A stretch of DNA of 64,000 nucleotides from Candidatus Marinacidobacterium sp. (GTDB lineage: Bacteria > Acidobacteriota > Vicinamibacteria > Marinacidobacterales > Marinacidobacteraceae), in assembly GCA_965204755.1 (NCBI GenBank), contig OZ242011.1, forward strand, positions 2,976,001 through 3,040,000, written 5' to 3'. Within the stretch, counting starts at the first letter, position 1, and every line of letters begins with the position of its first letter. The position numbers and the translations under genes were made by a program. The notes beneath the pieces are model-generated. The model was not told where the DNA came from. It saw only the letters and a program-made list of their open reading frames with translations, and made no database searches. Shown here one piece after another: positions 1-64,000 of the stretch.

Positions 1-417
1 CAGACCCTCGCGCTCCTGGTCTTCGCCTACGCCGTGCACTCGCTGCCCCAGGCGCTCGGCCCGCTGGAGGCCTCGCTCACCCCGCTCAGCCCGCGGCTCG
101 ACGACGCGGCGAGGACGCTCGGCGCCGGCTGGTGGCGGCGGCAGGCCGCCGTCACCCTGCCGCTGCTGCGTCCGGGGATCGCCGCCGGGTCGGCGCTGGT
201 GTTCCTGACCACGGTGAAGGAACTGCCCGCCACGCTGATGCTGGCCCCCACCGGGTTCCGGACGCTGGCCACCACCGCGTGGAGCGCCGCCGAGAATGTG
301 GAACTCGGCCGCGCCGCCGCCGCGGGGCTGGCGCTGCTCGCCCTCTCGATGGCGGCGCTGCTGTTCGTGCTCCGGGAGACCGCCCGGCTGACCCCGGCGG
401 CGCGGAGGGTCGAGTGA
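1..417 (+). CDS. Fe3+ ABC transporter permease, C-terminal part (5' truncated by window edge)
   Basis: Frame open from base 1; EAA-like loop (LDDAARTLGAGWWRRQAAVTLPLLRPGI), KELPATLMLAPTGFRTLAT and TM helices typical of FbpB-type permeases; next to an ABC ATPase. Confidence 0.85.
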   Translation, partial: QTLALLVFAYAVHSLPQALGPLEASLTPLSPRLDDAARTLGAGWWRRQAAVTLPLLRPGIAAGSALVFLTTVKELPATLMLAPTGFRTLATTAWSAAENVELGRAAAAGLALLALSMAALLFVLRETARLTPAARRVE

Positions 418-463
418 CCCGGCGGCCCGGTTCGCGGCGCGGCGCGACGGCGGAGGAAGCGGC

Positions 464-1615
464 GTGACCGCGCGGCCGGCGCTCCGCTGCTCCGGGATCG
501 AGCGGCGGTTCCCCGCCGCGGTCCTCGCGAACGGCGGCGCCTCCGGCAACGGGCACGGCGAACGGCAGGTGCTCGCCGGGGTGGACCTCGAAGTGGAGAG
601 CGGCGGGCTCCTCGCGGTGCTCGGGCCGAGCGGGGGCGGGAAGACCACGCTCCTCCGGATCGTCGCCGGGCTGGAGACGCCGGACGCCGGCCGGGTGGAG
701 GTCCTGGGCCGGCCGGTGACCGCGCCGGGCGTCTTCGTGCCGCCCGAGTCCCGGCGGGTGGGGCTGGTGTTCCAGGACTACGCGCTCTTCCCGCACCTCA
801 CGGCGCGGGAGAACGCCGGCTTCGGCGTGCCGGGGCCCGGCGGGAGCGCCCGGGCCGACGAAGCGCTCTCGCTGCTCGGCCTCTCCGGGGTCGCCGACCA
901 CCGCCCCGACGAACTCTCCGGCGGGGAGCAGCAGCGGGTGGCGCTCGCCCGCGCGCTCGCCCCCGAACCGGCGGTGTTGCTGCTCGACGAGCCGTTCTCG
1001 AACCTGGACGCGGCGTTCCGGGTCGGCGTCCGCGACGAAGTCGCCGGGCTCCTCCGGAGGATCGGCGCGACCGCGGTGCTGGTGACCCACGACCGCGAGG
1101 AGGCGTTCGCCCTGGCCGACCGGGTGGCGCTGCTCCTCGGCGGCGTGATCCGCCGCGTCGGCGCGCCGCAGGAACTCGCCGCGAACCCCGGCAGCCGCGA
1201 GGCGGCGCGGTTCCTCGGGGAAACGAACCTCCTCCCGGCGGAGAGCGACGGCCGATCGGCGGTCTGCGAGATCGGACGCGTGGAGGTCGCGCCGCCGCCC
1301 GCCGGCGAGTCCGCGCCCGCCGGGCCGGTGGAGGTGTTGCTGCCGCTCGACGGACTGCTGCTCGAGCCGTTCGCGGTGGAGGAGTCGTGGTCCGGCTCAC
1401 CGGGGGCGAACGGCGGCGCGCTGGCGGAGTTGACCCGGGCGACCTTCCACGGGGCGTACCAACTCCTCGAGGCCCGCCTGCCGTCCGGCGCCGCGCTGAG
1501 GGCCCGCTGCCCGGCGCGGGCCCACCGGCAGGGCCTGCTCCGCCCCGGCCAGCGCGTGCGCATCCGGCCGGCAGGCCCGGTCCCGGCGTTTCCCCTCGCG
1601 GCGGACTCGTCGTAG
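464..1615 (+). CDS. ABC transporter ATP-binding protein (FbpC/PotA-like)
   Basis: Walker A GPSGGGKT, Q-loop VFQDYALFPHL, signature LSGGEQQR, Walker B LLLDEPF, C-terminal TOBE-like region. Confidence 0.92.
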   Translation: MTARPALRCSGIERRFPAAVLANGGASGNGHGERQVLAGVDLEVESGGLLAVLGPSGGGKTTLLRIVAGLETPDAGRVEVLGRPVTAPGVFVPPESRRVGLVFQDYALFPHLTARENAGFGVPGPGGSARADEALSLLGLSGVADHRPDELSGGEQQRVALARALAPEPAVLLLDEPFSNLDAAFRVGVRDEVAGLLRRIGATAVLVTHDREEAFALADRVALLLGGVIRRVGAPQELAANPGSREAARFLGETNLLPAESDGRSAVCEIGRVEVAPPPAGESAPAGPVEVLLPLDGLLLEPFAVEESWSGSPGANGGALAELTRATFHGAYQLLEARLPSGAALRARCPARAHRQGLLRPGQRVRIRPAGPVPAFPLAADSS

Positions 1616-1665
1616 TCGGCCGGCCCGCGGCCGCGCGTTCGCCGGGCGCGGCCCGGTAGGGGAGA

Positions 1666-2556
1666 ATGGCGGGTATGGATCGAACGGCGCGCCGGGGACT
1701 CCGGTTCGTTCTCGTCGGATCGGTCCTCGCGGTCGGCGCGGGTTGCGGCCCGCCTTCGGGCGAGCATCCGTGGAACGCGCTCGACGCCGAGCGCCCGATC
1801 GCCGCGGCGGACAGCGTGTTCATCGAGGAACTCACTTGGATGGAAGTGCGCGACCGCATCGCCGACGGGGCGGTGACGGCGATCGTCGCCACCGGCGGCA
1901 TCGAGCAGAACGGGCCCTATGTGGTGACCGGCAAGCACGATGTGGTGCTCCGCGCGACCACCGAAGCCATCGCGCGCCGCCTCGGGAACGCCCTGGTCGC
2001 GCCCATCGTGGAACTCGTTCCCGAAGGCGGCCACGACCCGCCCACCGGACACATGCGTTATCCCGGAACCATCAGCCTCACGCAAGACACCTTCGAGAGC
2101 CTGCTCTGGGATGTCTCCCGCAGTCTGGCGGTGGGCGGGTTCCGCGAAGTGATGCTCATCGGCGACAGCGGCGGGAACCAGCGCGGCCTGGCGGCGGTGG
2201 CCGAGCGCTGGAACGCGGCCCCGCCGCATCCGGGAACGCGCCTCCACCACATTCCCGAGTACTACACCGAAGACCTGTGGAGTTACGAGCAACTGAAGGA
2301 ACTCGGCGTCTTCCAGACTCCCGATGTGCAGTCCGCTTCCCGCGGCGACATCCACGACGACTACCACTACGACGCGATCATGGCGACGGTGGACCCCGCC
2401 TCGATCCGCGCCGCCGAACGCCGCGCCGCCGGCCGGTTCGAGATCAACGGCGTCCCGCTCGACCCGCTGGACGAGACGATCGCGAACGGCTACGCCCTGA
2501 TCGCCCGCCGCGCGGAAATCACCATCGCCGCGTTCGAACGCTCGCTCGCGCGCTGA
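1666..2556 (+). CDS. Creatininase-family amidohydrolase, probable lipoprotein
   Basis: FIEELTWMEV, GGIEQNGP, HMRYPGTISL, GDSGGNQ; lipobox-like LAVGAGC; start may be 1675. Confidence 0.8.
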   Translation: MAGMDRTARRGLRFVLVGSVLAVGAGCGPPSGEHPWNALDAERPIAAADSVFIEELTWMEVRDRIADGAVTAIVATGGIEQNGPYVVTGKHDVVLRATTEAIARRLGNALVAPIVELVPEGGHDPPTGHMRYPGTISLTQDTFESLLWDVSRSLAVGGFREVMLIGDSGGNQRGLAAVAERWNAAPPHPGTRLHHIPEYYTEDLWSYEQLKELGVFQTPDVQSASRGDIHDDYHYDAIMATVDPASIRAAERRAAGRFEINGVPLDPLDETIANGYALIARRAEITIAAFERSLAR

Positions 2557-7435: not shown

Positions 7436-8965
7436 TCAGCGAGCGGGTGTTTTCTTCGTGGAGAGGCGCGGCCAGAGCGGGTCGCCGCCGCGCGTCGCCA
7501 AGGCCCGGTCAGCGCGGAAGGCCGCGTACTCCGCCAGCGCCGGCGGGCCGCTCCCGACCGGGGTTCCGAGGCGCGACAGGATCTCGGCGCTCGAATCCGG
7601 CATGACCGGCCACAGGAGGGCCGCCGCGGCGCGGGTGGCTTCGGCGGCTTCGTAGAGCGTTTCGTCGAGCGCGCCGGCCCGCTCCGGGTCCTTCGCCAAC
7701 TTCCACGGGGCGCGTTCGGTGAGGAACTCGTTCACGGCGTCCACGATCCGGAACGCCGCCGCCGCGCCTTCGTGGAGGCGCAGCGACTCCATCGCCGCGC
7801 GGCAGTCCGCCGCCGCCCCGGACACGATTCCGCCCAGCCGGGTCCGCGCCGACGGTTCGAGCCGGCCGTCCCGGTACCGCCCGGCCATCGAAGTGATCCG
7901 GCTCACCAGGTTGCCGAGCGAGTTGGCGAGGTCGGCGTCGTAACGCGCCTCGAACCGGGCCCAGGAGAAATCCCCGTCCTGTCCGTAGGCGATCTCGCGC
8001 ACGAGGAACAGCCGCAGCGGATCCGGGCCGAAGTGGTCCGCCGCCTCCAGCGGGTCCACGGAAGTGCCCAGCGACTTGCTCATCTTCTCGCCCATGAAGT
8101 TGACGAAGCCGTGGCCGAAGACCTTTCGCGGAAGCGCGACTCCGGCGGAGAGGAGCATCGCCGGCCAGATGACCGCGTGGAACCGGGTGATGTCCTTGCC
8201 CACGATGTGGAGGTCCGCCGGCCACCTTTCGTCCCAGCCGGCTTCGTCGTCGCCGTAGCCGGTCGCCGAGAGGTAGTTGATGAGCGCGTCGAACCAGACA
8301 TAGACGACGCTCTTCTCGTCGAAGGGGACGGGTATGCCCCAGTCGAGCCCCGGCCGGCTCACCGAGAGATCCGTCAACCCCGCCTCGAGGACTCGGGTCA
8401 GTTCGTTGCGCCGCGTTTCCGGTTCGATGAAACCGGGGTCGTCCCGGTAGAGCGCGAGCAGGCGGTCGCCGTAACGCGACAGCCGGAAGAAGTGGTTCCG
8501 CTCGCTGATCCAGTCCGGCTTGCCGCGGTGGATCGGGCAGATTCCGTCGTCGAGGTCCTTCTCCTGCTTGAACGCTTCGCAGGAAACGCAGTACCAACCC
8601 TCGTAGGTTCCCTCGTAGAGGTCGCCGGCGTCGCGGATCGCGCCCAGCAGTTTCTGCACGGCCGTCCGGTGCCGCCGTTGGGTGGTGCGCATGAACTCGT
8701 CGAACGAGATGTTCAACTTCGACCAGACGCCGCGAAACACTTCCTCCATCCGTTCGCAGTAGGCGAGGGGTTCGAGCCCCTGCTCGGCGGCCTTCCGGCG
8801 CACATTCAGCGAGTGTTCGTCCGCCCCCATCAGGAAATGGGTGTCGTACCCGGCGCACCGCCGGAACCGGGCGATCACATCCGCGGTGATCTTCTCGTAG
8901 GCGGTGCCGAGGTGCGGGGGCGAGTTGACATAGTCGATCGCCGTGGTGAGGTAGTAGCGGGGCAC
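7436..8965 (-). CDS. metG: Methionine--tRNA ligase (short form)
   Basis: YLTTAIDYVNSPPHLG (HIGH-like), YVWFDALINY, GKDITRFH, KMSKS. Confidence 0.97.
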   Translation of the reverse strand: MPRYYLTTAIDYVNSPPHLGTAYEKITADVIARFRRCAGYDTHFLMGADEHSLNVRRKAAEQGLEPLAYCERMEEVFRGVWSKLNISFDEFMRTTQRRHRTAVQKLLGAIRDAGDLYEGTYEGWYCVSCEAFKQEKDLDDGICPIHRGKPDWISERNHFFRLSRYGDRLLALYRDDPGFIEPETRRNELTRVLEAGLTDLSVSRPGLDWGIPVPFDEKSVVYVWFDALINYLSATGYGDDEAGWDERWPADLHIVGKDITRFHAVIWPAMLLSAGVALPRKVFGHGFVNFMGEKMSKSLGTSVDPLEAADHFGPDPLRLFLVREIAYGQDGDFSWARFEARYDADLANSLGNLVSRITSMAGRYRDGRLEPSARTRLGGIVSGAAADCRAAMESLRLHEGAAAAFRIVDAVNEFLTERAPWKLAKDPERAGALDETLYEAAEATRAAAALLWPVMPDSSAEILSRLGTPVGSGPPALAEYAAFRADRALATRGGDPLWPRLSTKKTPAR

Positions 8966-13432: not shown

Positions 13433-14401
13433 TCAGTCCAGCGTCGAGATCCGCTTGCGGAAGATCTCGTACAGCAGGTTCAGCCTCTCAGTGAGCCACT
13501 GGTAGCCGGCTTCGCGTTGACCCTCGTCCTGCCAGTTCGGATCCTGAGTCCTGCAATAGATCTTGCGCTGGATCGTGTCCGTGTTCGTGTCCCACACGAG
13601 ACCGTCATCACCGAACTGTTCGCCGAACTGCGCGTCGATCTCTGCGCGCTGCCGTTCGAGTGCCCTGAACCGCTCCCCAGCTCTGTCCCCAAAGAGCACG
13701 AATTCGCTGCGCAACTCAGGCGGATCATCTGCCCACGAACTCGCCGCAATCGCCTGAAGCCCGAAGCCGTCCTTGCCGATGGCCAAGGTCATCGAAGACG
13801 CAGCTTGCGGAGCGGTGGGACGAAATCTCGCCTTGTGCCTCTTGGCGTAGTCGACGAAGCCTCGCCAGAATTCAAGTTGGGCCATCTTCACCGGTGGCAA
13901 CTCAATGGGCCGGTTCTTCGTCCAGTCGTTCGGCTTAGCCACGATGTTGAACTTCGGAGCGGGAAGCGAGTCGTCGATTCTCCAGACCTCGATCTCAAGT
14001 CCGAAGAAGCGAATGTTCTCTCGTGTGTTCTCGTTCAGCCAGTCGAGTGCTGCCCGATGTTCGTCAGTGAACCGCTTGGCGATCCAGATCACCTTGAGCG
14101 CGTTGAGCCCTGCCGCGTAGGTCAGGATCTGACCGAGATGGCTGTGATCGGTCCTTTCGAGTTGGTTCTCGATGACGACTCTGCTGCTGTCCGCCGTATC
14201 GAAGGCGAGGATGTCGGCGGCGTAGTCTCCGACGCCTACCTCGGCGCCTTCCAACTTCAGTTTCATTCCCAAGACCTCGCCGAGGAATTGCAGGTTCTCG
14301 TCTTTCGCCAGCCACGGAGTGAAGTCACCGGCCTCATGTTTCCACACTTCCCGTTCCTCCACGCGGGACAGGCGAGAAAGGGGTTCGATAGACAGACTCA
14401 T
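13433..14401 (-). CDS. DUF4268 protein with N-terminal PD-(D/E)XK-like (NucS-like) nuclease domain
   Basis: REVWKHEAGDFTPWL, ADILA..VIENQLERTDHSHLGQILTYAAG, PAPKFNIVAKPNDW, QLEFW. Confidence 0.8.
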   Translation of the reverse strand: MSLSIEPLSRLSRVEEREVWKHEAGDFTPWLAKDENLQFLGEVLGMKLKLEGAEVGVGDYAADILAFDTADSSRVVIENQLERTDHSHLGQILTYAAGLNALKVIWIAKRFTDEHRAALDWLNENTRENIRFFGLEIEVWRIDDSLPAPKFNIVAKPNDWTKNRPIELPPVKMAQLEFWRGFVDYAKRHKARFRPTAPQAASSMTLAIGKDGFGLQAIAASSWADDPPELRSEFVLFGDRAGERFRALERQRAEIDAQFGEQFGDDGLVWDTNTDTIQRKIYCRTQDPNWQDEGQREAGYQWLTERLNLLYEIFRKRISTLD

Positions 14402-14727
14402 GGCTTGGGCGGAACGGGCTCCGGGCGACCGAAGCCTATCATGAACGGCGCCAAGTCGGCATCATGGTGCGGCTGACGCTTTCGGGAACACCGATTCCCG
14501 TCACGGCGCGAGTGGCCGGCTATCGCTCGGCACTTGCCCGGTCCGGCGAGGTGCAGTGCGCGAGGCCGCCGTGGCCACGACGGCCGAAGTTCGGCGCAAC
14601 CCTCGGTCGCCGTGGACCCCGGCCTCGCCCAGCCGGCTGCGCCCACACCTGCAAGAATTCACCACGCACGGCGCGATATGGAATCCACACCCTCCACAAC
14701 TACTCTGAATCACAGACTCGGGAAGGA

Positions 14728-17700
14728 CTATTCGTGAACGAGGCCCGGCGGTCGCGTCTTCTTGCCGCCGTGCACAGTCGGTTCGGCGCACCACTTCTTC
14801 CGAAGAAGATCGAGAGGTTCCAGCACACTTTCCGGGAGTCGCAGGATTCGGAGGAGGACAGCCGCGTCCAGCGCCTTCCGGGTCGCGTCCCGGTACGCTT
14901 CATTGGCCGGAAGCAGCGGCCGCTTCGAGAACTTGCCGAAGATCGCGGACGCGATGCGGAGTTGTGGGGGATCCAGGGTTCGAACATCGAGAACGGGAAG
15001 GTCCTTGAGCCCCATGCCGGTCAGGCGGGCTCGTCCGCTCTGCTGCCTGCTGCCCTTCCACCAGAACAGCAGGAGGCCGAGAGTCGTGTTCGCCCAGAGC
15101 AGAAGCGCTTTCTCGTGAGCGGACTCGTGCGCGGTAATCGTCGGCCAGGCGGTCCCGCCCATCGTCCTCTCGTCCGTCCAGCACGCGGCGAGGGGCTGTG
15201 AGTTCAGTCGGAAGTCCAGATTGAAGTGCAGGTGGGAGGCGGACCCCCAGGCGGCCGCGGCCTTGTCCTCCATTCCGGGGCGGACTTCACCGCGGCTGTC
15301 CGGAGCGACCGTGAGTTGTTGCTCCTGCTGGGCGTCATGACGCCAGAGCATCGGATAGGTCGGATAGTCGCCGACCGAGGTCGGAGCGACATCGAAAGGC
15401 CCGCGGTAAGTGCCGTCCGAGTTCAGACCGCTTATGTCGCGATGCACCGGCCCCTTCCTGCCGATCTCCGCGAGAGCCGCGGTCGGCACGGTGATGTCTC
15501 CCCGTGTCCCGGGAAGAGCCAGCGTCCCCGCCTCCAGCGCCAGCGCCGTCTTGGCCACGGACAGGTCGCCGACGGAGGCGCAGCCTCCCGCCCTTACCGG
15601 AGCGCGAATCGTTCCGGCGATTACCTCCGACCCCGATCGTATCGTCTCCGGTCGGCGCTCCGACACCGTGGCGAGTCGGATCTGCCGGGCGGTCTCCTCG
15701 GCGCCCATTTCCGTTCGGGGCCTCTCGCGCAGCCCGACCCAGTCGGCAGAGGTTCGTACATCCGTGTAGACATCCCGATCGGAATCGCTCATCTGTCTCT
15801 TGCGGGCGATCACCAACACTTCCGCCATCCCGGTGTCCGCGGAGAAGGACTGCTCGTCGGGACGCCCGCGGGAGATCGTGACGAAGACGATGTCCTCGTA
15901 CCGCGTGTCGAGCAATCGGCGAGCATCGGCCCATGCGGCTCCGCTGACCATGACGAGCGGCATCACGAGGGCGAGCGCGCCCCCCGGCTTCAGTTTGAGG
16001 TGCGCGAGATCGAGAAAGTTGGAGGCCAAGCCCGCGTTCCCGTGCCCGACCGGCTCGTCGAGCCCGCTTCGTCTGCGGGCCAACAAGGCGGACATGCGCT
16101 GCTGCTCGTTCTTGCTGGTTTCGAACCCGGCGAACGACGGAACGGGAACATCGGCGACTTCATGATTCGTCGGGCGGGTGAACGGCGGATTCATGATGAC
16201 CAGATCCAGACTGCCGTGAGGGATGGAGAACTCCGAGAGATCACCGCCTCCGATCTCCGTGTCGGCCTCGGCCGCAGTGACTCGACGGATGCCTGTCGAG
16301 AAGAGGGAGATGCCGGATCTCTCGTCGAGGAGGTCCAAGGCGCCGATTCGGAAGGTCTGATCCCGGTCGATGTCCGTCAGGCCGTAGGGAAGCGTGTAAA
16401 CCCTCGTCTGCTCGAACAGCGTCGTCGGGTTTGCGCTGGCGAGTATCGAGGTCGTCAAGTGCGTGGCGGCCGGCATGATGTCCGTTGCGATCAGCGAATC
16501 TTCGATCATGGCCCGATGGAGGGCGCGGTCGTCGCCTCCCGCGCGCCGGTGGCGCCGGGCGACGGCGCGATATGCGGCGGTGAGCAGCGTGCCGGTGCCG
16601 CATGCGAAGTCCGCGATACGGAGGGACCGCAGGGTGTCGGGATTACGCCACTCGACCGATATCCTCCCCACTGCCAACTCCGCGAGGAGAGTGGCGGCCG
16701 CCGGACGGGTGTAGAAGGTCGCCAAGAACTTCCGATCGGTGATCAGTCTCTGGAACATGCGCCCCGAGAGATCGTGGGACCGGGCCACGCCGGAGTCTGC
16801 GATCTCTTCGGCGACGGACGCCAGCCGGCTGAGGATGTCTCCGGAAATTCCTTCGGGAATCGTCGAGAGGATCCGGGAGGCGACATGGAAGATCGGCCAG
16901 TAGTTGATGTCGTCGAGGATGCGGCGCCATTCCCGCAGGGTGAGCCTCTTCGAGATCAGGCCGCTCTCGCCCCGCAATCCCTCGATCCCCGGAACATCGC
17001 GGACACCGGCGATCATCGTCTGGAATGTGAGCGCGTTGGCGAGAATCGCCATGGCCATCCGCGTGGTCTGTTCGCCCGGGGTCTGGTGGAGCGACTCAGA
17101 AATGCCGTCGAGAACATCGGGGCGTCGCGCGCAGGCGCTTCGGAGTCGTTCTGCGGACTGCGATACACCCTCCTCGAGAACACCGAGCATTCTCGTGACG
17201 AGTCGCTCGGACAGGGCGCTCGACTCCACGAGATCAGCGAGGGAGTCCGCGTCGCCGTCGATCCAGCCCGCCCGCGGCCAGCGGACGGCGGTGTCCTCGG
17301 ACGACCAGAGGCAGTACTGGTACCGGGCGGTGGCGACCGCCTCGGGCAGCGCGTGTTGGCCGACTCGTCGGAGAGATTCAGGAACCCGGACCGCGATGGC
17401 GTGATCGATGGACCGGCCCGTAGCCAGGACTTTGGCGCCCAGCCGGGACTTGGCGTCCGCTTCGACGGTTCTGGCGGGCAGGAACTCGGTTTCCAGGACT
17501 ACGGGGCCGGCGCCGGGCTCATGGACAAGCACATCGGGACGCCTTCCACCGGGGAGGACTCCGATCGGTTCGGCTTGCAGCACATCGTCCTCGCGCCACC
17601 GGGGGTTTCTCGCCCGCATCGCGCCGGCGAGGGCGCTGTTGAAGGTGTGCTCGTCGTTCACGAAGAGCCCCCGGCCGTAAGTCGCAAATGTTCGGACGCG

Positions 17701-17730
17701 CGGCGTCTCCCGTAGTGACGCGACACCCAA
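14728..17730 (-). CDS. Type IIG-like fused restriction endonuclease / N6-adenine methyltransferase
   Basis: N-terminal RRPDVL..VVLETEF nuclease-like motif, FYTRP, motif I DFACGTGT, motif IV MNPPF, C-terminal TRD-like region; exact start uncertain. Confidence 0.8.
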   Translation of the reverse strand: MGVASLRETPRVRTFATYGRGLFVNDEHTFNSALAGAMRARNPRWREDDVLQAEPIGVLPGGRRPDVLVHEPGAGPVVLETEFLPARTVEADAKSRLGAKVLATGRSIDHAIAVRVPESLRRVGQHALPEAVATARYQYCLWSSEDTAVRWPRAGWIDGDADSLADLVESSALSERLVTRMLGVLEEGVSQSAERLRSACARRPDVLDGISESLHQTPGEQTTRMAMAILANALTFQTMIAGVRDVPGIEGLRGESGLISKRLTLREWRRILDDINYWPIFHVASRILSTIPEGISGDILSRLASVAEEIADSGVARSHDLSGRMFQRLITDRKFLATFYTRPAAATLLAELAVGRISVEWRNPDTLRSLRIADFACGTGTLLTAAYRAVARRHRRAGGDDRALHRAMIEDSLIATDIMPAATHLTTSILASANPTTLFEQTRVYTLPYGLTDIDRDQTFRIGALDLLDERSGISLFSTGIRRVTAAEADTEIGGGDLSEFSIPHGSLDLVIMNPPFTRPTNHEVADVPVPSFAGFETSKNEQQRMSALLARRRSGLDEPVGHGNAGLASNFLDLAHLKLKPGGALALVMPLVMVSGAAWADARRLLDTRYEDIVFVTISRGRPDEQSFSADTGMAEVLVIARKRQMSDSDRDVYTDVRTSADWVGLRERPRTEMGAEETARQIRLATVSERRPETIRSGSEVIAGTIRAPVRAGGCASVGDLSVAKTALALEAGTLALPGTRGDITVPTAALAEIGRKGPVHRDISGLNSDGTYRGPFDVAPTSVGDYPTYPMLWRHDAQQEQQLTVAPDSRGEVRPGMEDKAAAAWGSASHLHFNLDFRLNSQPLAACWTDERTMGGTAWPTITAHESAHEKALLLWANTTLGLLLFWWKGSRQQSGRARLTGMGLKDLPVLDVRTLDPPQLRIASAIFGKFSKRPLLPANEAYRDATRKALDAAVLLRILRLPESVLEPLDLLRKKWCAEPTVHGGKKTRPPGLVHE

Positions 17731-17829
17731 GGGTAATACTAGCGCCGACGCAGAGCAGTAGCGCCAGTGTGCCGGTCGGGAAACCGGGCGTCGGACGGAG
17801 CGGAATTCGGCCGTGGTTCCCTGTGGCGG

Positions 17830-18420
17830 CTACAAACGGGTGAGGGGTTCATGAGGTGGGAGCGAGCGCGCCGCCAGGGCGACATCGAGAGATGCGGCCA
17901 AGGCTGCCTCGCCGTTCTCGCGGAGTTGAGACGGCAACTCCGGGCGGGAGCGGGGGAGGGCGCCGGCGCGGGTGAGACAGGCGCGGGCTCGGTGCGAGAG
18001 CCAGATGAGGCGGTATTCGGCGGCCGCCTCCTCGTCCCCGATCTCCTGCATCCGGAGGAGGACTTTCCGAGCGGCGGCGGCGCGTTCGTCCGCGACTTCC
18101 GGGTCGGGCAGGGGAAGCCGGTGGCGCCAGCGCCGCGAGATGGCGCCCCAGTGTCCTTCACAGTCGAGCAAGGGGTGGCCGAACTGCACCGCCCCGATCA
18201 AGAGGTCGTTCGCGGAGCGAAGGGACGGCTCCACCCGGTCGAGCGCGACCTTGCGGAGGTCCACCTCGATCGGGGGTCGTTCGGCGATGGCGGATCGATC
18301 GCGGCAGATCGCCAGCAGGTCCAAGTCTTCCGACTCGACGCCGGGCCGCGTGGCGGAGCCGATGGCGATGACGGCGAGGAGGTTCGGGTCTCCCGCGGCG
18401 CGGTCGAGGAAGGCGCCCAC
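17830..18420 (-). CDS. Pol-beta superfamily minimal nucleotidyltransferase with helical (HEPN-like) C-terminus
   Basis: AVIAIGSATR..SEDLDLL (GS..DxD); protein-like sequence (WPTARSRRW) continues upstream in frame without a start codon, so the 5' end may be frameshifted. Confidence 0.6.
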   Translation of the reverse strand: MGAFLDRAAGDPNLLAVIAIGSATRPGVESEDLDLLAICRDRSAIAERPPIEVDLRKVALDRVEPSLRSANDLLIGAVQFGHPLLDCEGHWGAISRRWRHRLPLPDPEVADERAAAARKVLLRMQEIGDEEAAAEYRLIWLSHRARACLTRAGALPRSRPELPSQLRENGEAALAASLDVALAARSLPPHEPLTRL

Positions 18421-18547
18421 CCACCGGCGGGAGCGGGCGGTGGGCCAGCGGAGGATCGGCCGTTCGGTTGTTTTCCGTCGTCACCTCGGATCTACGAGCC
18501 CAAAGGCGGAGGCGACATGGTATTCGACAGCCGCGGCAACCTCGCAG

Positions 18548-18772
18548 TCAACGACGACACAGATACCGCCAAAGTCGCTGTCGCACGGACATCGTCTTCC
18601 GAATCTTCGACAAGAGATCACTCGGCGGCTCCACAATCCACTTGGAGTAGTCGACAGGGGGAACCATGTCTTTTGACGGGTCGCCTTTCCCGATTGCTCT
18701 TCTTCTCATCATCCGAACGAAGTTGTCGTTCTGCATCGCACTTAGACCTTGGACTGCCTTCTTTTGCGCCAT
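18548..18772 (-). CDS. Possible small hypothetical protein or gene remnant (74 aa)
   Basis: ATG-started ORF on the island strand in more AT-rich DNA; no recognisable motif. Confidence 0.25.
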   Translation of the reverse strand: MAQKKAVQGLSAMQNDNFVRMMRRRAIGKGDPSKDMVPPVDYSKWIVEPPSDLLSKIRKTMSVRQRLWRYLCRR

Positions 18773-18804
18773 CGGTCTCGCAATACAACCGAAGCGACAT
18801 CATT

Positions 18805-19008
18805 AGTCGAGGCGACGATGTCAGCCGAGAAGTCCCCCACGCCGACTTCCGCGTCCTCCTACTCCAGTTCCATTCCCAGGGTTTCTCCGAGAAACTGCAA
18901 GTTCTCGCCCATCGCGAGCCACGGAGTGAAGTCCTCCGCCTCATGTCTCCACACTTCCCGCACGCCCACGCGGCGCAGTCGAGAAAGTTACTCGATGATG
19001 TGATTCAT
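18805..19008 (-). pseudogene. Truncated paralog of the DUF4268 gene (5' ~68 codons, two in-frame stops)
   Basis: MNHIIE*LSRLRRVGVREVWRHEAEDFTPWLAMGENLQFLGETLGMELE*EDAEVGVGDFSADIVA aligns codon-for-codon with the N-terminus of 13433-14401; TAA 18988-18990, TAG 18859-18861. Confidence 0.9.
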
Positions 19009-19046
19009 GGTGTGGGTCGCACAGCCGATAGAGCTAATGTCGTCTA

Positions 19047-19613
19047 CTACCGTGGGCAGTGCGTGTACCCCATGGCGCGGTCGACGCCCTCCAGGAACAC
19101 ACGAAAACTCGAAGACCGGTTGCCCTCGCGGCCGAGACAGCCGGACATGGCTCTGGCTCCCGCGACCTTGCCGAAGCCGGGGACGAGTTTCCCGATCATC
19201 TGTGACGGGTTGCCGATGGTGTCCGGATTTCGGAATTGCGCTTTGGCCGCGAGTCGCGCCAGTTTCGGGTCATTGAAGGCGACGGCCATGGCGTGGGGGT
19301 CTCCAAGATACCAGGCCTCCAATTCGCGACACGCGATGCGAACGACCGCACCCGGCTTCCCGGCTCGTTCACACAACGTCGCGAGGTGTTGCTTGACGGC
19401 CTCGCACTCGGCGGCGTCCTGATCCCGCAAGACCACGAACCGAGTGTCGGGCGTGCGCCAAGCGCGGAGTTTTCTCCCGACACTCCGGTCGAGGTCGGCC
19501 TTCCCTTCATGGGTGATGAGGCGGAATCGCAGGCTGGGGAAGAAGCGAGGCAGGAGACCGTTCAGGAACTCCCTCATGGAGCGGTCCTCCACGAAGAAGA
19601 CGACCTCGCTCAT
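19047..19613 (-). CDS. DUF4276-family (TOPRIM-like) protein
   Basis: VFFVEDRSM, HEGKADL, VVLRDQD, RIACRELEAWYLGD, NRSSSF; ATGA-coupled to the ATPase. Confidence 0.8.
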   Translation of the reverse strand: MSEVVFFVEDRSMREFLNGLLPRFFPSLRFRLITHEGKADLDRSVGRKLRAWRTPDTRFVVLRDQDAAECEAVKQHLATLCERAGKPGAVVRIACRELEAWYLGDPHAMAVAFNDPKLARLAAKAQFRNPDTIGNPSQMIGKLVPGFGKVAGARAMSGCLGREGNRSSSFRVFLEGVDRAMGYTHCPR

Positions 19614-20785
19614 TGGGGCTCGGCTCCCGGGAACAGGCCTTGTTTCCACAGAGTCCCCGGACGATCTCCTTCCTCAACCAGTGCGCGGATCTGTTTGTCG
19701 TGGGAGGCGCGCCGGGCGATGCTGACGCCGTTGCTCTTGACGAGCCAGAAGACTTCGTCCAAGTTGGCGGCATTGAGGAAATCCGGAGAATGGGTCGAGA
19801 CGAAGACTTGGCCTCCCTGACGAGCGTAGCCACGAAACTCCTCTGCGAGTTCTTCCATGAGATGAGGGTAGAGTTGGTTTTCCGGTTCCTCCACGGCCAG
19901 CAGCGGGTGCGGTTTCGGATCGTGGAGAAGCACGAGGTAGGCGAACATCTTGATCGTGCCGTCGGAGACATAGCGCGCGATGAACGGATCCTCGAACGCG
20001 CCGTCCTGAAAACGCAACATCAGCCTTCCGTCCTCTGTCGTCCGTGCTTCAACCCGTTCGATTCCAGGTATACGAGACTTCATCACCTCCAGAATTCGGT
20101 CGAAGCGATCGCGATGGTTCTCATAGAGGAATTTGGCGACCGGTGCGACATTCTCGCCGCGCGATGACAGATGTTCAGCGTAGACGGCATCGACGCTCGG
20201 ACGAGCTTCGGAGATGTGAAAGTCAGAGATGTACCAGTTCTCGATGATGTTGCGGAACTCCGAGACGACGCGGAAATCACGAAACTGACCGAGCCCCTTG
20301 ATGGCAGGAACGCTGGGATCGTCCAGCCGGAACTCTTTGCGTTCTTCCTTTACGTCCTCCTGTCCATAGGCAGATTCATTGGTGATGGCCACCCCGGATC
20401 CGCCTCGGAACGAAAGAAATTGCCACGGTTTGCCGCGGGCGCCTCGGCGGTACTGCAGGATCTCCCTGCGGATGACGACACGGCCGGAGTCCTCGGCCAC
20501 TTCAAGGATGTAGGTCGCGAGGCGACCGCCACTCTCGCGGAACTTGATCGTGATCGCGACAGCCCCCTTCTGCGCGCGCGTCGTGAGTTCCTGAAGTCCA
20601 CCTCGACGAGCGACCGCGATCGCGACATTGGAGGTAAGGGACTCCTTCAGGAAACTGAAGACATCAAACAGGGTGGACTTCCCGGTTCCGTTCGCGCCGA
20701 CGACGACCGCCATGCGCGGCAAATCGGCCAGCACCGTCCGGTGGAGACAGCGGTAGTTGCGAATCTCGATTCGTGTGATGTGCAT
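19610..20785 (-). CDS. AAA_21/ABC-type ATPase (defence-associated)
   Basis: IEIRNYR, Walker A GANGTGKS, VSDGT, Walker B VEEPENQLYP, VSTHSP; start re-called at MHITRIEI; TAGAAT -10 about 60 nt upstream. Confidence 0.88.
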   Translation of the reverse strand: MHITRIEIRNYRCLHRTVLADLPRMAVVVGANGTGKSTLFDVFSFLKESLTSNVAIAVARRGGLQELTTRAQKGAVAITIKFRESGGRLATYILEVAEDSGRVVIRREILQYRRGARGKPWQFLSFRGGSGVAITNESAYGQEDVKEERKEFRLDDPSVPAIKGLGQFRDFRVVSEFRNIIENWYISDFHISEARPSVDAVYAEHLSSRGENVAPVAKFLYENHRDRFDRILEVMKSRIPGIERVEARTTEDGRLMLRFQDGAFEDPFIARYVSDGTIKMFAYLVLLHDPKPHPLLAVEEPENQLYPHLMEELAEEFRGYARQGGQVFVSTHSPDFLNAANLDEVFWLVKSNGVSIARRASHDKQIRALVEEGDRPGTLWKQGLFPGAEPQ

Positions 20786-21249
20786 GGCGAGACGGCCTGA
20801 GAGAAGTGCGGGCGGCACCGAAGGCGGGCCGACGCGGCCCGCGAATTCTAACCGGAGCGGGTCCGGTAGGTCAGCGGGGTGAGCACCGCGTGGAGCCGTG
20901 GGGCGCATCAGGCATAGGCGCTTGAAAGGGCGGGGGCGAGCGGCGGCACGGGCCACCGGAAGAGGGGCGACTGGTCTTTTTCGTTCGGATGGCCGGTAGT
21001 CCGCTCCGGAGAGCGACCGGGGAGGCAGCCGGGACGTTCAGGGCACAGGAAGGCATGTTCTCTCGTGGTAGCCTTTCCGGCTGCTGGCCATTCCGGCGTC
21101 GGCGTTCCCGGTCGGGGTGGGGTCGGCGGGCGCGGCGGTCGTTTCGCGCTTCGAGAGCGCCGACTTCGAGTCGCGCCGGGGGGCGCCCGGCGCGGTGGCC
21201 GTTCTGCTCCCTTCTCCTCCGGTCAGCCGAGGGCTGATCGTGGTGTCCG

Positions 21250-22527
21250 ATGCCCTTCCTGCCGGGGCGCGTTTCGCGCCCGTTCGCCGCCGGCGCCCTT
21301 CTCGTGGCGGCAGCCTCGTTCGGGGCCGCGCCTTCGGCGGCCGGCCAGCGGCTCGCGGGGGCCGGGAGCGGCTCCCCCTGGGCGGGGGAGGGGAGCGCCG
21401 ACGAGTCGCGGTTCCTGAGCCGGGTCCGGCGGCTGACCGTGGAGGGGCGGCGGGCCGGGGAGGGGTACTTCTCGCCGGACGGACGGGAGATCGTCTTCCA
21501 GTCGGAGCGCGAGCCGGGCAACCCGTTCTTCCAGATCTACCTCCTGTCGTTCGAGACCGGCGAGACGCTGCGGGTCTCCCCGGGGACCGGCAAGACGACC
21601 TGCGCCTTCATCTCGCCGAGCGACGGCGGGGTCCTCTTCGCGTCCACGCACCTCGACCCCGGGTCGGTGGAGTTGCAGCGGGAGGAGATCGAGTTCCGGG
21701 AGAGCGGGCGGGAGCGCCGCTACTCCTGGGACTACGACCCGGCGATGGACTTGTTCGCTTGGGACCGGGACACGGGGGAGTTGACCCGGTTGACCGAGGC
21801 GCGGGGCTACGACGCCGAGGCCAGTTACTCGCCGGACGGGGAATGGATCGCGTTCACTTCGATGCGCTCGCTGTTCGAGGACGAGTTGACGGAGCGCGAA
21901 CGGCGGCTGGCGGAAGTGGACCCGTCCTACTTCGGCGAGATCTGGATCATGCGCGCCGACGGCAGCGGGAAGACCAGACTCACGAACGCTCCCGGCTACG
22001 ACGGGGGGCCGTTCTTCTTCCCGGACGGGGAGCGGATCGTGTGGCGGCGGTTCAGCGAGGACGGCGTGATCGCGGACATCTATTCCATGCGGCGGGACGG
22101 CAGCGACCTCCGCAGGTTGACCGACTTCGGCTCCATGAGTTGGGCGCCGTATGTCCATCCGTCCGGCGAATACCTGCTCTTCGCCTCGAACAAACTCGGC
22201 TTCAGCAACTTCGAGGTGTACATGGTGGACACCGCGGGCGAGAAGGAGCCGATCCGCGTTACGACGACGGACGGCTTCGACGGCCTGCCGGTGCCGACCC
22301 CGGACGGGCGCGGCCTCGCTTGGACCTCCACCCGCCACGGGGAAGGCTCCGGCGGACAGATCTACCTGGCCGACTGGAACCACGAGGAAGCGCTGGCCGC
22401 GCTCGTCGCCGCGCCGGCCCGGCGTTCGGCGTCGGAGACGCCGCATGAACCACGATCCGGGAACGGGATCGTTCGGCGTCTTGGCATGGACCGGATGCCT
22501 CGGAAGCCATCGGGGAAGCACGAATGA
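21250..22527 (+). CDS. Exported TolB-like PD40 beta-propeller protein
   Basis: Signal peptide; repeats EGYFSPDG, EASYSPDG, GPFFFPDG, APYVHPSG, PVPTPDG. Confidence 0.88.
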   Translation: MPFLPGRVSRPFAAGALLVAAASFGAAPSAAGQRLAGAGSGSPWAGEGSADESRFLSRVRRLTVEGRRAGEGYFSPDGREIVFQSEREPGNPFFQIYLLSFETGETLRVSPGTGKTTCAFISPSDGGVLFASTHLDPGSVELQREEIEFRESGRERRYSWDYDPAMDLFAWDRDTGELTRLTEARGYDAEASYSPDGEWIAFTSMRSLFEDELTERERRLAEVDPSYFGEIWIMRADGSGKTRLTNAPGYDGGPFFFPDGERIVWRRFSEDGVIADIYSMRRDGSDLRRLTDFGSMSWAPYVHPSGEYLLFASNKLGFSNFEVYMVDTAGEKEPIRVTTTDGFDGLPVPTPDGRGLAWTSTRHGEGSGGQIYLADWNHEEALAALVAAPARRSASETPHEPRSGNGIVRRLGMDRMPRKPSGKHE

Positions 22528-37100: not shown

Positions 37101-37319
37101 CGCCGCCGCCGGCGTCCCCGCCGGAAGAGGGTGACGCTCGACTCGTTCATCGTTTCCAGGACCTCGTACGAGGACATCCGCCCGAGGTACGATGACGGTA
37201 CTTGGACTCGGGAACGTTTCGCCGACGCCCATATCCTGTTTTTCGACCGGGACCGGGAATACCTGCGCCGGATCCTGCTCCGCGAGGGTTCCCGGACATC
37301 CGATACCACCGGGCGCTGA
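34116..37319 (+). CDS. res: Type III RM restriction subunit (Res), SF2 helicase + nuclease
   Basis: FWMATGSGKT, VDEAH, FEYSATF, EGWN, QLFGRGVR, C-terminal FFPDFILW..VEPHG. Confidence 0.9.
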   Translation: MPGRRRAGRARRKPGAAGKPGAPFERRLSLLGWLNEQLGFEDNRELLGDLKHADEGFDSGAGRSHVLSRLRSRAVRPRVALADLDRYDGNIRRRLDSINRGRRPPVRLRYFQHLAALHTEIVLDRQARGPVELLRSLNDFVRRRNAKRVPGEAALPDFDRADLAKLAFWMATGSGKTLIFHLNYLQYLHYARRPPDNIVLITPNEGLSEQHLLELAASGISARRFDEAGGLFRSGADAIRVIEVTKLVEEKRGGGASVPVDYFEGENLIFVDEAHKGSGGEKWRTVRDRLGETGFTFEYSATFGQALGAARNEALTDEYGKAIAFDYSYRYFHGDGFGKDFGILNLKEWAADETTDLLLFGNLLSFYQQQRVFAERREEVRPYGIDKPLWVFVGGRVNAVYSRDGIRRSDVLTVVRFLQRFASDRRWAERRLARLLDGRSGLVTEAKNDLFHGRYEHLRGLSLSPEELRRDILSRLFHAEADGSLHLASLGNSPGEIGLRLGTSEKYFGLIYIGDVSKFRKLVEDDGSGVRWETEAIVDSLFSNIGEADTNIEILIGAKKFMEGWNSWRVSNMGLLNVGRGEGAQIVQLFGRGVRLRGLRAGMKRSSAVTGTHPPDLGLLETLNIFSVRADYMARFREYLELEGIPAADPVVLPLPVRRNTEFLRRGLLVPKPPEERRFERESDLVFTVDTSIQAWVDRSPQLQWLSSGDSGMSAEDIDTETDIEIPEASLDILDWEEIWLKLIDYREERGWRNLAIPPEVPRRILSVREPHRLYRLGAERSVVEPPSFADRERLQDLVLDILRNYADRFYRAHSESWDTGNLELEALTEKDANFRDYTVRVEREEVKLARDIEELIRETDALYESARGRLPRIYFDRHLYQPLLLGQAEGIRSDPPGLNESEERFVRDLRQFWTDRRDELPEETELFLLRNLERGRGIGFFEGRGFFPDFILWIESRSEQRIVFVEPHGMVHAAAYANDHKARLFQVLDRFTEERRRRRPRRKRVTLDSFIVSRTSYEDIRPRYDDGTWTRERFADAHILFFDRDREYLRRILLREGSRTSDTTGR

Positions 37320-45805: not shown

Positions 45806-46672
45806 GTGAAGGCTTACCTCGACGCCGCGCGCCGGGTTCTCGACACCGGGGTCCGGAAGCCGAACCGCACCGGGGTGGACACCCTCTCGGTCTTCAACCT
45901 GAACTACGAGGTATCCCTCGCCGACGGTTTCCCGCTGCTTACGACCAAGAAGATCAGTTGGAAGAACATCGTCATCGAAAACCTCTGGTTCCTCTCCGGC
46001 GAACCCTCGATCGCCCTGTTGAAGAAACACGGCTGCCGGTTCTGGGATCCCTGGGCGGACGAAGAGGGTTTCGTGCCGAGCGCGTACGGCCACTTCTGGC
46101 GGCGCTTTCCCGGTTCCGCGGGGCCTTCCGACCAGGTCCGCTGGGTGCTCGACGAGTTGGAGCGCAACCCGATGTCCCGCCGGCTGGTGGTGAGCGCCTG
46201 GGCGCCGGAGAACGCCCGGTCGAGCGGACTTCCCCCCTGCCACTTCGCGTTCGTCCTGAACGCCAGGGACGGCGCCGACGGCGTCCGCCGGCTCGACCTC
46301 CACCTCACCCAGCGCAGTTGCGATGTCGCGCTCGGCCTCCCCTACAACATCGCCGGCTACTCGCTGCTGCTGCACCTGTTCGCCGCCTGGGCCGGGCTCG
46401 AGCCGGGGACGATGGCTTCGACGCTGGTGGACGCCCATGTCTATACCGACAAGCCCGACGGCTCCATGCCGGAATACGACCATGCGCCCGGACTCCGGCG
46501 GCAACTCCGCCGGGCGCCGCGTCCGCTGCCCCGGCTGCACCTGTCCGAGCGGGTGCGGTCGCTCGACGGGACGCTCTCGCTGCTCGACGAGGGCACCGAC
46601 GAAATCCTCTCCCACTTCCGACTGGAGGGGTACGACCCGCACCCCGCCATCCGCTTCGCGGTGGCCGTATGA
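45806..46672 (+). CDS. thyA: Thymidylate synthase
   Basis: NRTGVDT, GFPLLTTKK, SRRLVVSAW, LPPCH, QRSCDVALGLPYN, DAHVY, terminal AV. Confidence 0.95.
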   Translation: MKAYLDAARRVLDTGVRKPNRTGVDTLSVFNLNYEVSLADGFPLLTTKKISWKNIVIENLWFLSGEPSIALLKKHGCRFWDPWADEEGFVPSAYGHFWRRFPGSAGPSDQVRWVLDELERNPMSRRLVVSAWAPENARSSGLPPCHFAFVLNARDGADGVRRLDLHLTQRSCDVALGLPYNIAGYSLLLHLFAAWAGLEPGTMASTLVDAHVYTDKPDGSMPEYDHAPGLRRQLRRAPRPLPRLHLSERVRSLDGTLSLLDEGTDEILSHFRLEGYDPHPAIRFAVAV

Positions 46673-55405: not shown

Positions 55406-56164
55406 CTACTTCGGGTTCGGGATACCGCGATCCGCCAGGGCGAGCAGGTCCCCGTTTCCGATCGCCCGCGCGGCCATGCGGCCGACGACGCTGATCCGGC
55501 CGGGGTCGGCGCCGGCGCGCAGCAAGGCCCGCACGAAGCGGGGTTCCCCGGCAAAGATCGCCGTCAGGATGGGCGGAGTTTTTTCGTTTTCCGCACCGTC
55601 CGGGTTGGCGCCGGCTTCGAACAGGGAGTCCAGGCACCGCAGCCTCTCTTCGATGTCGAGGGGTGACCCGGGTTCTCGGTCGAGCCCCGGTGTCGCTATC
55701 GTCTCGACGGTGAGGCCGCCCTCGCCCTCGCTTTCGGTCGAGGACAAGCTCGACTCGACGACCGGATTCATCACCTCCTGAATCGGGCTCACCGCGCTGC
55801 CGCAGGCGTGGTCCGGACTCGCGCCGGCGGCGAGGAGCGCATCCACGAGGGCCGGCTCGCCGAGCAGTGAGGCGATTCCGAGCGGCGAGCGGTCGTCGTC
55901 GCCGCAGGTGTCCGGGTCCTGCGCCGCAGCCGCGCGGGCGACCCGGTCGGGATCCTTCGCCCAAACCGCTCGACGGAGCGTGTCCGGGTCCGCCGCCTGC
56001 TCGGCCTCCGTGAGGGCTGGTTCGCTTCCGCCGCTGCCCGGGTCGAAGTGGAACCGCACGCAGCCGTCCGACCCGAGTGCGAGCGAGAAAACACCAGTAG
56101 CCGCATCGGTTCTGACCATAACGACGAAACCGGGTTTCCGGTTCCGACTCCTTCGACCAGCCAC
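55406..56164 (-). CDS. Ankyrin-repeat protein
   Basis: RSPLGIASLLG..LLAAGASPD, LFEAGANPD, LLRAGADP; start uncertain. Confidence 0.65.
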   Translation of the reverse strand: MAGRRSRNRKPGFVVMVRTDAATGVFSLALGSDGCVRFHFDPGSGGSEPALTEAEQAADPDTLRRAVWAKDPDRVARAAAAQDPDTCGDDDRSPLGIASLLGEPALVDALLAAGASPDHACGSAVSPIQEVMNPVVESSLSSTESEGEGGLTVETIATPGLDREPGSPLDIEERLRCLDSLFEAGANPDGAENEKTPPILTAIFAGEPRFVRALLRAGADPGRISVVGRMAARAIGNGDLLALADRGIPNPK

Positions 56165-61754: not shown

Positions 61755-61758
<4 letters not shown>

Positions 61759-63171: not shown

Positions 63172-63209
63172 GCCGGTGAGCCGGTGAGCCCCCGGTGAAC
63201 CCCCGGTGA
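63164..63209 (+). repeat. Iterated CCGGTGA units (8-bp x3, 11-bp x2) at the ribH/nusB junction
   Basis: GCCGGTGA GCCGGTGA GCCGGTGA GCCCCCGGTGA ACCCCCGGTGA. Confidence 0.9.
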
Positions 63210-63697
63210 ATCCGAAGACGGCGCGGGAGCGCCGGAGGGGTCGGGAACTCGCCGTCCAGATGCTCGCTTCGTGGGACGCGAACCCCACCGACCCGAAACT
63301 CACCGTGATCCGGATCGCGGAACTGACCCGCGCCAGCGCCAGGCACCTCCGGGCCGCGGAGCGGCTGGCCCGCACCGTCTGGGACCGACTGCCCCGGATT
63401 GACGCCTGCCTCGACCGGACGATCCACACCCCCTGGCGCGGGAAACTGGGTCGCGTGGAGCGCAGCGTGCTGCGCGTGGCCGTGGGCGAACTCCTGACGG
63501 AGACCGCTCCGCCGGCGGTCGTCCTCTCCGAGGCGCTGGAAGTCGCCCGCCTCTACGCGGGCGAAGCCGCCGTCCCCTTCGTCCACGGCGTCCTCGACAG
63601 CGTGGTGCGCGGCGGCGCGTCCCCGGCGGACGGGGAAGGGGACGGCGCGCCGCCCGCCGACGCGCGGACTCCCGCCGGGACGAGCGGCCCCGAATGA
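63206..63697 (+). CDS. nusB: Transcription antitermination factor NusB
   Basis: RRRGRELAVQML, VERSVLRVAVGEL, VVLSEALEVARLY, FVHGVLD. Confidence 0.9.
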   Translation: MNPKTARERRRGRELAVQMLASWDANPTDPKLTVIRIAELTRASARHLRAAERLARTVWDRLPRIDACLDRTIHTPWRGKLGRVERSVLRVAVGELLTETAPPAVVLSEALEVARLYAGEAAVPFVHGVLDSVVRGGASPADGEGDGAPPADARTPAGTSGPE

Positions 63698-63715
63698 GCG
63701 GCCCCGAATGAGCGG
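63682..63715 (+). repeat. 14-bp tandem duplication GAGCGGCCCCGAAT x2.4 at the nusB/lysS junction
   Basis: Read directly. Confidence 0.9.
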
Positions 63716-64000
63716 GCAGGAAACTCCGGGCGCGGCGGCCCGACCGAACCCCGGCCGGGATGAGCAGGGCCGCCGCCGCAAACTCGCCGAGATCGCCGAA
63801 CTCGCCGCCGAGTCCGGAGTCCCGCTCTGGCCGGCGCGCTTCGAGACCACGCACACGCCCGCCGGGGCCTTCGCCGCCTGGGGCGCCCTCGACGCCGAGG
63901 CGCTGGAGGCGCTCCCCGAGTCCGAACGCCGGACGCGCGTGGCCGGCCGGATCGTCGGCCACCGCTCCTTCGGCAAGGCCGCCTTCGCCACGCTCGCCCA
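63708..64000 (+). CDS. lysS: Lysine--tRNA ligase class II, N-terminal part (3' truncated)
   Basis: Manual translation MSGQETPG..RRRKLAEI..GVPLWPARFETTHT..RVAGRIVGHRSFGKAAFATL (anticodon OB fold). Confidence 0.85.
   Translation, partial: MSGQETPGAAARPNPGRDEQGRRRKLAEIAELAAESGVPLWPARFETTHTPAGAFAAWGALDAEALEALPESERRTRVAGRIVGHRSFGKAAFATLA

Follow-up and report, generated by a model that had tools for sequence, protein, structure and literature searches.

The stretch of DNA analysed here, referred to as the window, comprises 64,000 nucleotides from the genome (G000) of a Candidatus Marinacidobacterium, a sponge-associated acidobacterium. It corresponds to G000:C1:2976001-3040000 and lies within a single contig of 3,975,858 bases. 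The window carries core genes such as metG, lepA and thyA, as well as two defence islands, and it is almost free of two tetranucleotides, AGCT and ACGT. An exact site count located AGCT seven times (13679, 13802, 19032, 20204, 22859, 24108 and 55747) and ACGT five times (19376, 20352, 21034, 33572 and 37214). Here we consider what keeps these two sites out of the genome, including two candidate multi-gene systems elsewhere on the chromosome that we call c-type and f-type (Table 1). At a GC content of 70.6%, the zero-order expectation for the window is 172 for AGCT and likewise for ACGT. A second-order Markov model predicts 124 AGCT and 116 ACGT, giving observed/expected ratios of 0.06 and 0.04. 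The palindromes taken for comparison are abundant, with 447 GATC, 529 TCGA, 147 CATG, 94 GTAC and 71 TGCA. An earlier note on this DNA had listed the same twelve positions and missed none. Its claims of a strong shortfall and of common comparison palindromes are borne out, and its naming of lepA, metG and thyA, none of which contains either site, is correct. A profile search agrees with its further statement that the window contains no C5 methyltransferase, although a type III mod gene of the N6/N4 family is present at 31006-34095.

The depletion extends over the whole chromosome. In 3.98 Mb, AGCT occurs 332 times where 7446 are expected and ACGT 265 times where 7147 are expected (Kr 0.04 each), which makes them the lowest two among all 256 tetramers. 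The third-lowest tetramer is CTAG, which is also scarce, with 3 against 45 expected in the window and 385 against 2942 on the chromosome. CTAG is rare in many bacteria. When the genes were sorted by the GC content of third codon positions (GC3), the high-GC3 core set (1526 genes, 2.13 Mb) retained only about 1% of the Markov expectation (AGCT 46/4091, ACGT 46/3740, observed/expected). The corresponding values are 114/2104 and 146/2264 in the lower-GC3 genes, and 169/1196 and 73/1093 in DNA unassigned to genes.

An artefact of assembly or base calling was considered and rejected. The codon changes preserve the amino acid and in many cases are not C-to-T, the sites in rRNA and tRNA genes are intact, and contigs from four independent studies agree. 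These contigs match the window near-identically, with about 0-3% differences over the pieces listed, and the window sequence is present in sequencing runs from eight studies, several of which are labelled sponge metagenome; no RNA run is among those listed. When 40 of the 511 strain differences from the window were applied together, no new site arose where about one was expected, a sample too small to have power. One strain (run X3) carries a paired change, C>G and C>T, at window positions 39013-39014; the second change alone would make AGCT, and the two together give AGGT.

The densest cluster of sites in the genome is the single rRNA operon, which holds 24 AGCT and 6 ACGT. Another 27 AGCT and 5 ACGT are found in the 67 tRNA genes, bringing the number in rRNA and tRNA genes together to 51 AGCT and 11 ACGT. 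The contexts TAGCTC and GAGCTA are frequent among the residual sites, and those in tRNA genes may fall in the D-arm. The other residual sites are concentrated in islands of lower GC. Within the window, 11 of the 12 sites lie in the two defence islands (13433-24233 and 31006-37319), and the first island holds six of the seven AGCT and three of the five ACGT. The two islands flank lepA, and their GC3 is 0.71-0.83 as compared with about 0.9 in the neighbouring genes.

Table 1. Features of the window and candidate systems elsewhere in the genome. Positions without a prefix are those of the window.
Feature	Position	Strand	Remarks
Whole window	1..64000	.	7 AGCT and 5 ACGT; Markov expectation 124 and 116
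metG, class I Met-tRNA synthetase	7436..8965	-	Core gene without AGCT or ACGT; Pfam tRNA-synt_1g, E 1.6e-100
Defence island, lower GC3	13433..24233	.	DUF4268 gene, 1000-aa protein of unknown function, AAA_21 ATPase with DUF4276, GmrSD
GmrSD type IV nuclease gene	22524-24233		Within the first island
lepA	26073..27869	+	Core gene without a site; GTP_EFTU and LepA_C; start approximate (first Pfam domain; open reading frame 25308-27869)
Type III-like mod methyltransferase	31006..34095	+	N6_N4_Mtase; carries ACGT 33572
Type III res helicase-nuclease subunit	34116..37319	+	ResIII; carries ACGT 37214
thyA, thymidylate synthase	45806..46672	+	Core gene without a site; Pfam E 6.7e-80
Unannotated open reading frame	55406..56164	-	GC3 0.82; AGCT 55747, the sole residual site outside the two islands
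c-type system	G000:1259233-1263828		Methyltransferase with PDC-M33 A, B and C; predicted site AGCT
c-type methyltransferase	G000:1262788-1263828	-	The three following genes match PADLOC PDC-M33A, B and C
f-type system	G000:1516107-1521781		627-aa A, intact B, DUF6339-like C, methyltransferase and Vsr-like protein; predicted site ACGT

The avoidance of the two sites is written into the codon usage of the 1526 high-GC3 genes. Codon-pair expectations were calculated by keeping every dipeptide and drawing its two codons independently of each other, an analytic counterpart of a synonymous shuffle. By this measure, the observed/expected counts in frames 1, 2 and 3 are 15/1107, 23/3983 and 8/121 for AGCT and 10/1175, 25/2895 and 11/103 for ACGT. 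Summed over the three frames (46/5211 and 46/4173), the depletion survives the control for codon usage and dipeptides. The codon rules that follow from it are close to absolute before Val, where Asp is encoded by GAT in 99.2% of cases versus 8.0% elsewhere, Asn by AAT in 99.1% versus 4.4%, His by CAT in 99.4% versus 11.5%, and Tyr by TAT in 99.3% versus 8.4%. For Asp, the GAC:GAT ratio is 11:1430 before Val and 35297:3083 elsewhere, so that the odds differ by a factor of about 1500 (7.3 log units). Leu after xAG is encoded by TTG in 98.3% of cases versus 3.6% elsewhere, Glu before Leu by GAA in 74.8% versus 32.0%, and Ser before T by AGT in 21.5% versus 1.8%. The earlier note had reported that otherwise disfavoured codons, such as GAT, TTG and AGT, appear at would-be sites, and these frequencies agree with it. 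Where Thr precedes a codon starting with T, ACG drops to 0.3% from 37.5% elsewhere, while ACC rises to 76.9% from 60.2%, ACT to 20.9% from 1.7% and ACA to 2.0% from 0.7%. Part of the rise in ACT is due to a general codon-boundary effect on NNT codons, since these are commoner before T-initial codons in the core genes even where no site is involved, TCT for instance at 5.0% versus 0.9%. After xxA, the codons GCT (0.2% versus 2.8%) and CGT (0.4% versus 3.1%) show an 8-14-fold loss.

The earlier note described the lost sites as replaced by their C-to-T products and gave unrepaired deamination of 5-methylcytosine (m5C) as the first of two possible causes. In such a mutational decay, AGm5CT and Am5CGT would turn into AGTT or AACT and into ATGT or ACAT faster than repair could restore them, and no selection would be needed. 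The genome does encode six C5 methyltransferases, and the products are indeed strongly enriched in coding frames 1 and 2 (AGTT 1030/202 in frame 1; AACT 4062/1472 and ATGT 3256/386 in frame 2). The enrichment, however, occurs exactly where the genetic code offers no other synonymous escape. In the contexts AGC-T, xAG-CTx and xAC-GTx, the transition product is the only synonymous codon that can be reached in a single step, and for that reason the enrichment in coding DNA is expected under either model. In frame 3 (xxA-GCT and xxA-CGT), both C-to-T products are non-synonymous, and the site can be abolished synonymously at the last codon position. This frame is nevertheless depleted 15-fold for AGCT and 9-fold for ACGT, so sites are not kept where C-to-T would alter the protein. 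Similarly, ACG before T gives way to ACC and ACT and hardly to the transition product ACA. The comparison of coding with intergenic DNA also goes against deamination. The 588 short spacers that separate core genes (together 65.5 kb) are depleted (AGCT 9/71, ACGT 4/69) and have no excess of products (AGTT 71/82, AACT 75/81, ATGT 36/34, ACAT 41/32). The retention of sites in rRNA and tRNA genes also favours selection. Since mutation alone, once at long-term equilibrium, would likewise leave the products only slightly in excess, most weight falls on frame 3 and on the magnitude of the depletion. A codon-odds shift of about 1500-fold is far above any m5C hot-spot effect known to us. In addition, a Vsr match lies beside or near five of the six C5 methyltransferases, Vsr being an enzyme that repairs T:G mismatches of the kind that deamination creates, and CCWGG stands at 0.94 in the genome although an EcoRII-type C5 system adjoins. 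The depletion is independent of the C-to-T routes, selection on the sites fits better than m5C deamination, and we regard mutational decay as very unlikely.

We consider it likely that AGCT and ACGT are kept out by natural selection, in the form of restriction-site avoidance caused by long-carried AluI-like and MaeII-like nucleases. At times when protective methylation falls behind, each site would slightly endanger the cell's own chromosome through cleavage. Over a long residence, nearly all sites that can be removed synonymously would be lost, so that core genes keep about 1% of the expected number, and the survivors would be confined to rRNA and tRNA genes and to recently acquired islands. 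Selection could also act through the methylated site itself, if resident, modification-dependent type IV nucleases from time to time cleaved host DNA at AGCT and ACGT bearing m5C. The genome contains many methyltransferases and at least two GmrSD genes, one in the window and one beside a C5 methyltransferase (G000:2396103-2397809). Against this, CCWGG is not depleted in spite of its C5 system, and losing either the methyltransferase or the nuclease would be a simpler evolutionary response, which leaves this mechanism extremely improbable. The earlier note also offered a more speculative reading, a defence that defines self by the absence of the site, in which a nuclease with no partner methylase attacks AGCT or ACGT and spares a genome that has none. 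A purge of about 99% in core genes is in keeping with such a defence. Yet several hundred of each site remain on the chromosome, some of them in rRNA operon and tRNA genes that cannot be lost. The persistence of these sites means that a protecting methylase would still be required alongside any cognate nuclease, and a 4-bp cutter without protection would be lethal. We find this reading barely conceivable.

To place restriction-site avoidance in its phyletic setting, all 27 other genomes of the family were sampled at 5.9-60 kb each, G001 being the sole other species of the genus. Depletion of AGCT is confined to G001 (13/100), and that of ACGT to G001 (12/110), G005 (5/52) and G007 (9/40). All remaining observed/expected values in the family fall between 0.57 and 1.26. 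ACGT depletion spans three genera and AGCT depletion one. The codon signature follows the same distribution. NAC before Val is found in 5/37 cases in G001, 2/45 in G005 and 4/21 in G007, versus 36/41 and 20/24 in controls, and xAG-CTN among Glu/Gln/Lys-Leu pairs in 5/109 in G001, 45/72 in G005 and 37/54 in G007. The difference in range indicates two separate pressures with different histories. The earlier note's proposal that two long-standing, site-specific pressures rewrote codon usage is therefore upheld in its outline, and in its alternative of selection, but not in its suggestion of unrepaired m5C deamination as the driver. A MetG tree left the genera unresolved and did not settle whether G001, G005 and G007 form a clade. 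In this tree, the terminal branch of G000 (0.15) is about 2.6 times as long as that of G001 (0.058). Outside the family, a locus (L029) from an unrelated metagenome-assembled genome of 63% GC (G455) is likewise strongly depleted of AGCT, with 3 versus 32 expected in 15 kb.

The earlier note called for a genome-wide search for C5 methyltransferases and vsr. Profile searches of G000 matched six PF00145 C5 methyltransferases and six Vsr, together with 28 PF01555 (N6/N4) proteins. The N6/N4 matches number 22 in G001 and 15 in G007. Several GHKL (HATPase_c_3) proteins adjoin C5 methyltransferases in G000 and its relatives. Two candidate systems stood out when the C5 enzymes of G000 were set against those encoded by G001, G005, G007, G011 and G004. 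In the c-type system, the neighbours of the methyltransferase match the PADLOC models PDC-M33A (E 7.7e-93), B (2.5e-40) and C (9.9e-23). Its methyltransferase occurs in two of the 28 family genomes, G000 and G001, with 72% identity, and in two of the 55 genomes of the order. The c-type flanks are syntenic between G000 and G001, so the system predates their split. A metagenome scan with this methyltransferase turned up no new close relative, just three loci at 26-30% identity. The f-type system is more weakly recognised, with A matching at E 6.1e-6, C matching DUF6339 at 7.9e-4, below the cut-off, and B having no match. Its A gene is found in four of the 28 family genomes, namely G000, G005 (55% identity), G007 (53%, on a contig of about 1.5 kb) and G001 (26%). 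These are exactly the four ACGT-depleted genomes, and the match in G007 was found after being predicted. The f-type methyltransferase of G005 is 78% identical to that of G000, and that of G001 is 43% identical. In G001, the locus syntenic to f-type is occupied by a divergent system rich in AGCT and ACGT sites, which suggests that a recent replacement took place there.

Two N4/N6 enzymes common to G000, G005 and G007 (over 70% identity) were rejected as agents because they are widespread, being present in 10 and 16 of the 28 family genomes whether these are depleted or not. For the remaining four C5 methyltransferases of G000, neither G001 nor G005 nor G007 has a close counterpart.

The nature of the accessory proteins was approached through the A subunit of the PDC-M33 type (M33A), for which 401 homologues with E <= 1e-10 were obtained among 8000 candidates scored. 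The predicted model of M33A (pLDDT 76) gave Foldseek matches to Hsp90, TRAP1 and topoisomerase VI-B, with E values from 7.7e-9 to 1e-7. An alignment of 56 sequences shows a conserved E-x-x-x-N-x-x-D-like motif and glycine-rich motifs, which we take to be the GHKL motifs. Judging from the model, M33A is a predicted GHKL ATPase with a middle (S5-like) domain, of the kind linked to cytosine methylases and Vsr. The predicted model of M33B (pLDDT 86) yielded no informative fold match, only generic beta-sandwiches with a best Z of 8.1. Sequence searches of the PDB with M33A and M33B returned nothing meaningful, and the Atlas clusters were annotated just as 'hypothetical protein'.

Based on these gene contents and distributions, we tentatively propose, with somewhat less than even confidence, that c-type and f-type, both of them multi-gene systems combining a C5 methyltransferase with a GHKL ATPase, are the agents. 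A number of observations weigh against this assignment. The c-type C gene (DUF6339/PDC-M33C, G000:C1:1259233-1259928, minus strand) is interrupted by an in-frame stop about 76 codons in, and it is adjoined by a DDE transposase of an insertion sequence (1257200-1258882) that separates the system from a Vsr gene beyond. The c-type system may therefore be decaying in G000, the very genome in which the depletion is strongest. Neither a helicase nor a recognisable nuclease was found in the candidate systems by Pfam, NCBIfam and PDB sequence searches. G001 is depleted of ACGT, yet the A gene and the methyltransferase at its f-type locus are only distantly similar to those of G000. Four distant genomes that carry homologues of 53-61% identity are not depleted in the 60 kb sampled from each (G298, AGCT 150/157; G389, AGCT 183/184 and ACGT 189/189; G421, ACGT 208/187; G189, ACGT 173/180), and G298 combines an apparently whole c-type operon with normal AGCT. 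In fact, none of the genomes with distant homologues of the candidate methyltransferases (G298, G389, G421, G189, G386 and G074) shows depletion. The candidates were moreover chosen for their fit to five genomes, so that the later tests consist of the 22 other family genomes, all negative, and the A gene of G007. One or two evolutionary events may be all that underlies the concordance between systems and depletion. Finally, one survey reports that the sites of non-orthodox restriction-modification (R-M) types are usually not avoided (Rusinov et al. 2015, PMC4687349). The distant homologues without depletion may differ in specificity or may have been acquired recently; that survey takes the presence of a system without avoidance to mean that it arrived recently.

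Several of these points would be met if the selection were real but its agents were orthodox type IIP R-M systems of the AluI and MaeII kind, since lost or present in a form that escapes recognition, with the depletion as their trace and the GHKL/M33 systems as bystanders. According to the survey (PMC4687349), traces of lost R-M systems are common and usually only orthodox type II sites are avoided. The lack of depletion in other genomes that carry M33-type homologues and the broken c-type C gene point the same way, and the AGCT-poor genome that contains L029 has no detectable C5 methyltransferase (PF00145) in its 2.1 Mb assembly. On the other side, a residue of about 1% in core genes, held against a strong preference for codons that would form the sites, suggests a current or very recent pressure. 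Two M33-type systems track the two depletions across the 28 family genomes. The shared N4/N6 enzymes occur irrespective of depletion, and the other four C5 enzymes lack close counterparts in the depleted relatives. On balance, we judge it unlikely that lost or unrecognised orthodox systems purged the sites.

The depletion itself, whichever agents caused it, resembles restriction-site avoidance as described in PMC4687349. A short palindrome is under-represented relative to a Markov expectation, the under-representation is shared with close relatives, and it is weaker in recently acquired DNA, a pattern that can be read as self-toxicity accrued over long residence. According to the same survey, avoidance grows with the residence time of the R-M system and persists after its loss. 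About half of the orthodox type II sites are avoided in that survey, whose threshold is Kr 0.78. The present case differs in degree, since for two 4-bp sites at once Kr falls to 0.04 over the genome and to about 0.01 in core genes, with 99% codon switching. It also differs in the candidate agents, which are multi-gene GHKL systems, unlike the two-gene orthodox type II systems. The depleted sites are the same as the recognition sequences of AluI (AGCT) and of MaeII/HpyCH4IV (ACGT), although the gene architecture of the local candidates is different. M.AluI is a C5 methyltransferase. As in vertebrate CpG depletion by m5C deamination and in the very-short-patch repair (Dcm/Vsr) of E. coli, genes for a cytosine-5 methyltransferase and Vsr are present, but the depletion here is much stronger than in either and proceeds off the C-to-T routes. 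The c-type system is like the PADLOC candidate PDC-M33 in that its A, B and C genes match all three models. Iyer, Abhiman and Aravind (2008, PMC2292703) described R-M operons in which GHKL ATPases accompany cytosine methylases and Vsr. These paraMORC/MORC operons likewise place a GHKL ATPase with a middle domain beside a cytosine methylase and a gene of the Vsr superfamily, and unlike them the c-type and f-type systems have yielded neither a helicase nor a recognisable nuclease. A literature search found no prior account of AGCT or ACGT purging, though the supplementary tables of the avoidance survey may list comparably low values, and no published function or specificity for PDC-M33 or DUF6339. 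What is seen here is a known phenomenon, restriction avoidance, at unusual strength and with a new candidate agent.

If the candidate agents are the right ones, which we again hold as a tentative possibility, C5-methyltransferase systems of the PDC-M33/paraMORC type would be true 4-bp restriction systems of unusual self-toxicity, whose targets could be read from the host genome (ACGT for f-type, AGCT for c-type) and whose long carriage would drive a loss of about 99% of a tetranucleotide and impose near-absolute codon-pair rules. For an uncharacterised but widespread family of defence candidates (PDC-M33/DUF6339 with a GHKL ATPase), the case yields a specific prediction, cheap to test, of what the systems do and which site they target. 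The depletion may rank among the strongest instances of restriction avoidance on record, with context-dependent codon rules that override a GC3 of about 0.9, and it offers a clean natural system for gauging the strength of selection by self-restriction. There is also a practical warning, in that tetranucleotide and codon-pair statistics of such genomes carry a strong lineage-specific signal, which can affect binning, the detection of horizontal gene transfer and gene design.

Two further observations concern the genome and the window. On the G000 chromosome, GTCGAC (the SalI site) is depleted 5-fold (416/2076) and GGWCC stands at 0.62-0.65; these shortfalls may be footprints of further R-M systems. 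In the window, a gene for an ankyrin-repeat protein lies at 6404-7318 on the minus strand. Ankyrin-repeat genes are often reported in sponge symbionts, and its presence fits the sponge metagenome runs in which the window sequence occurs.

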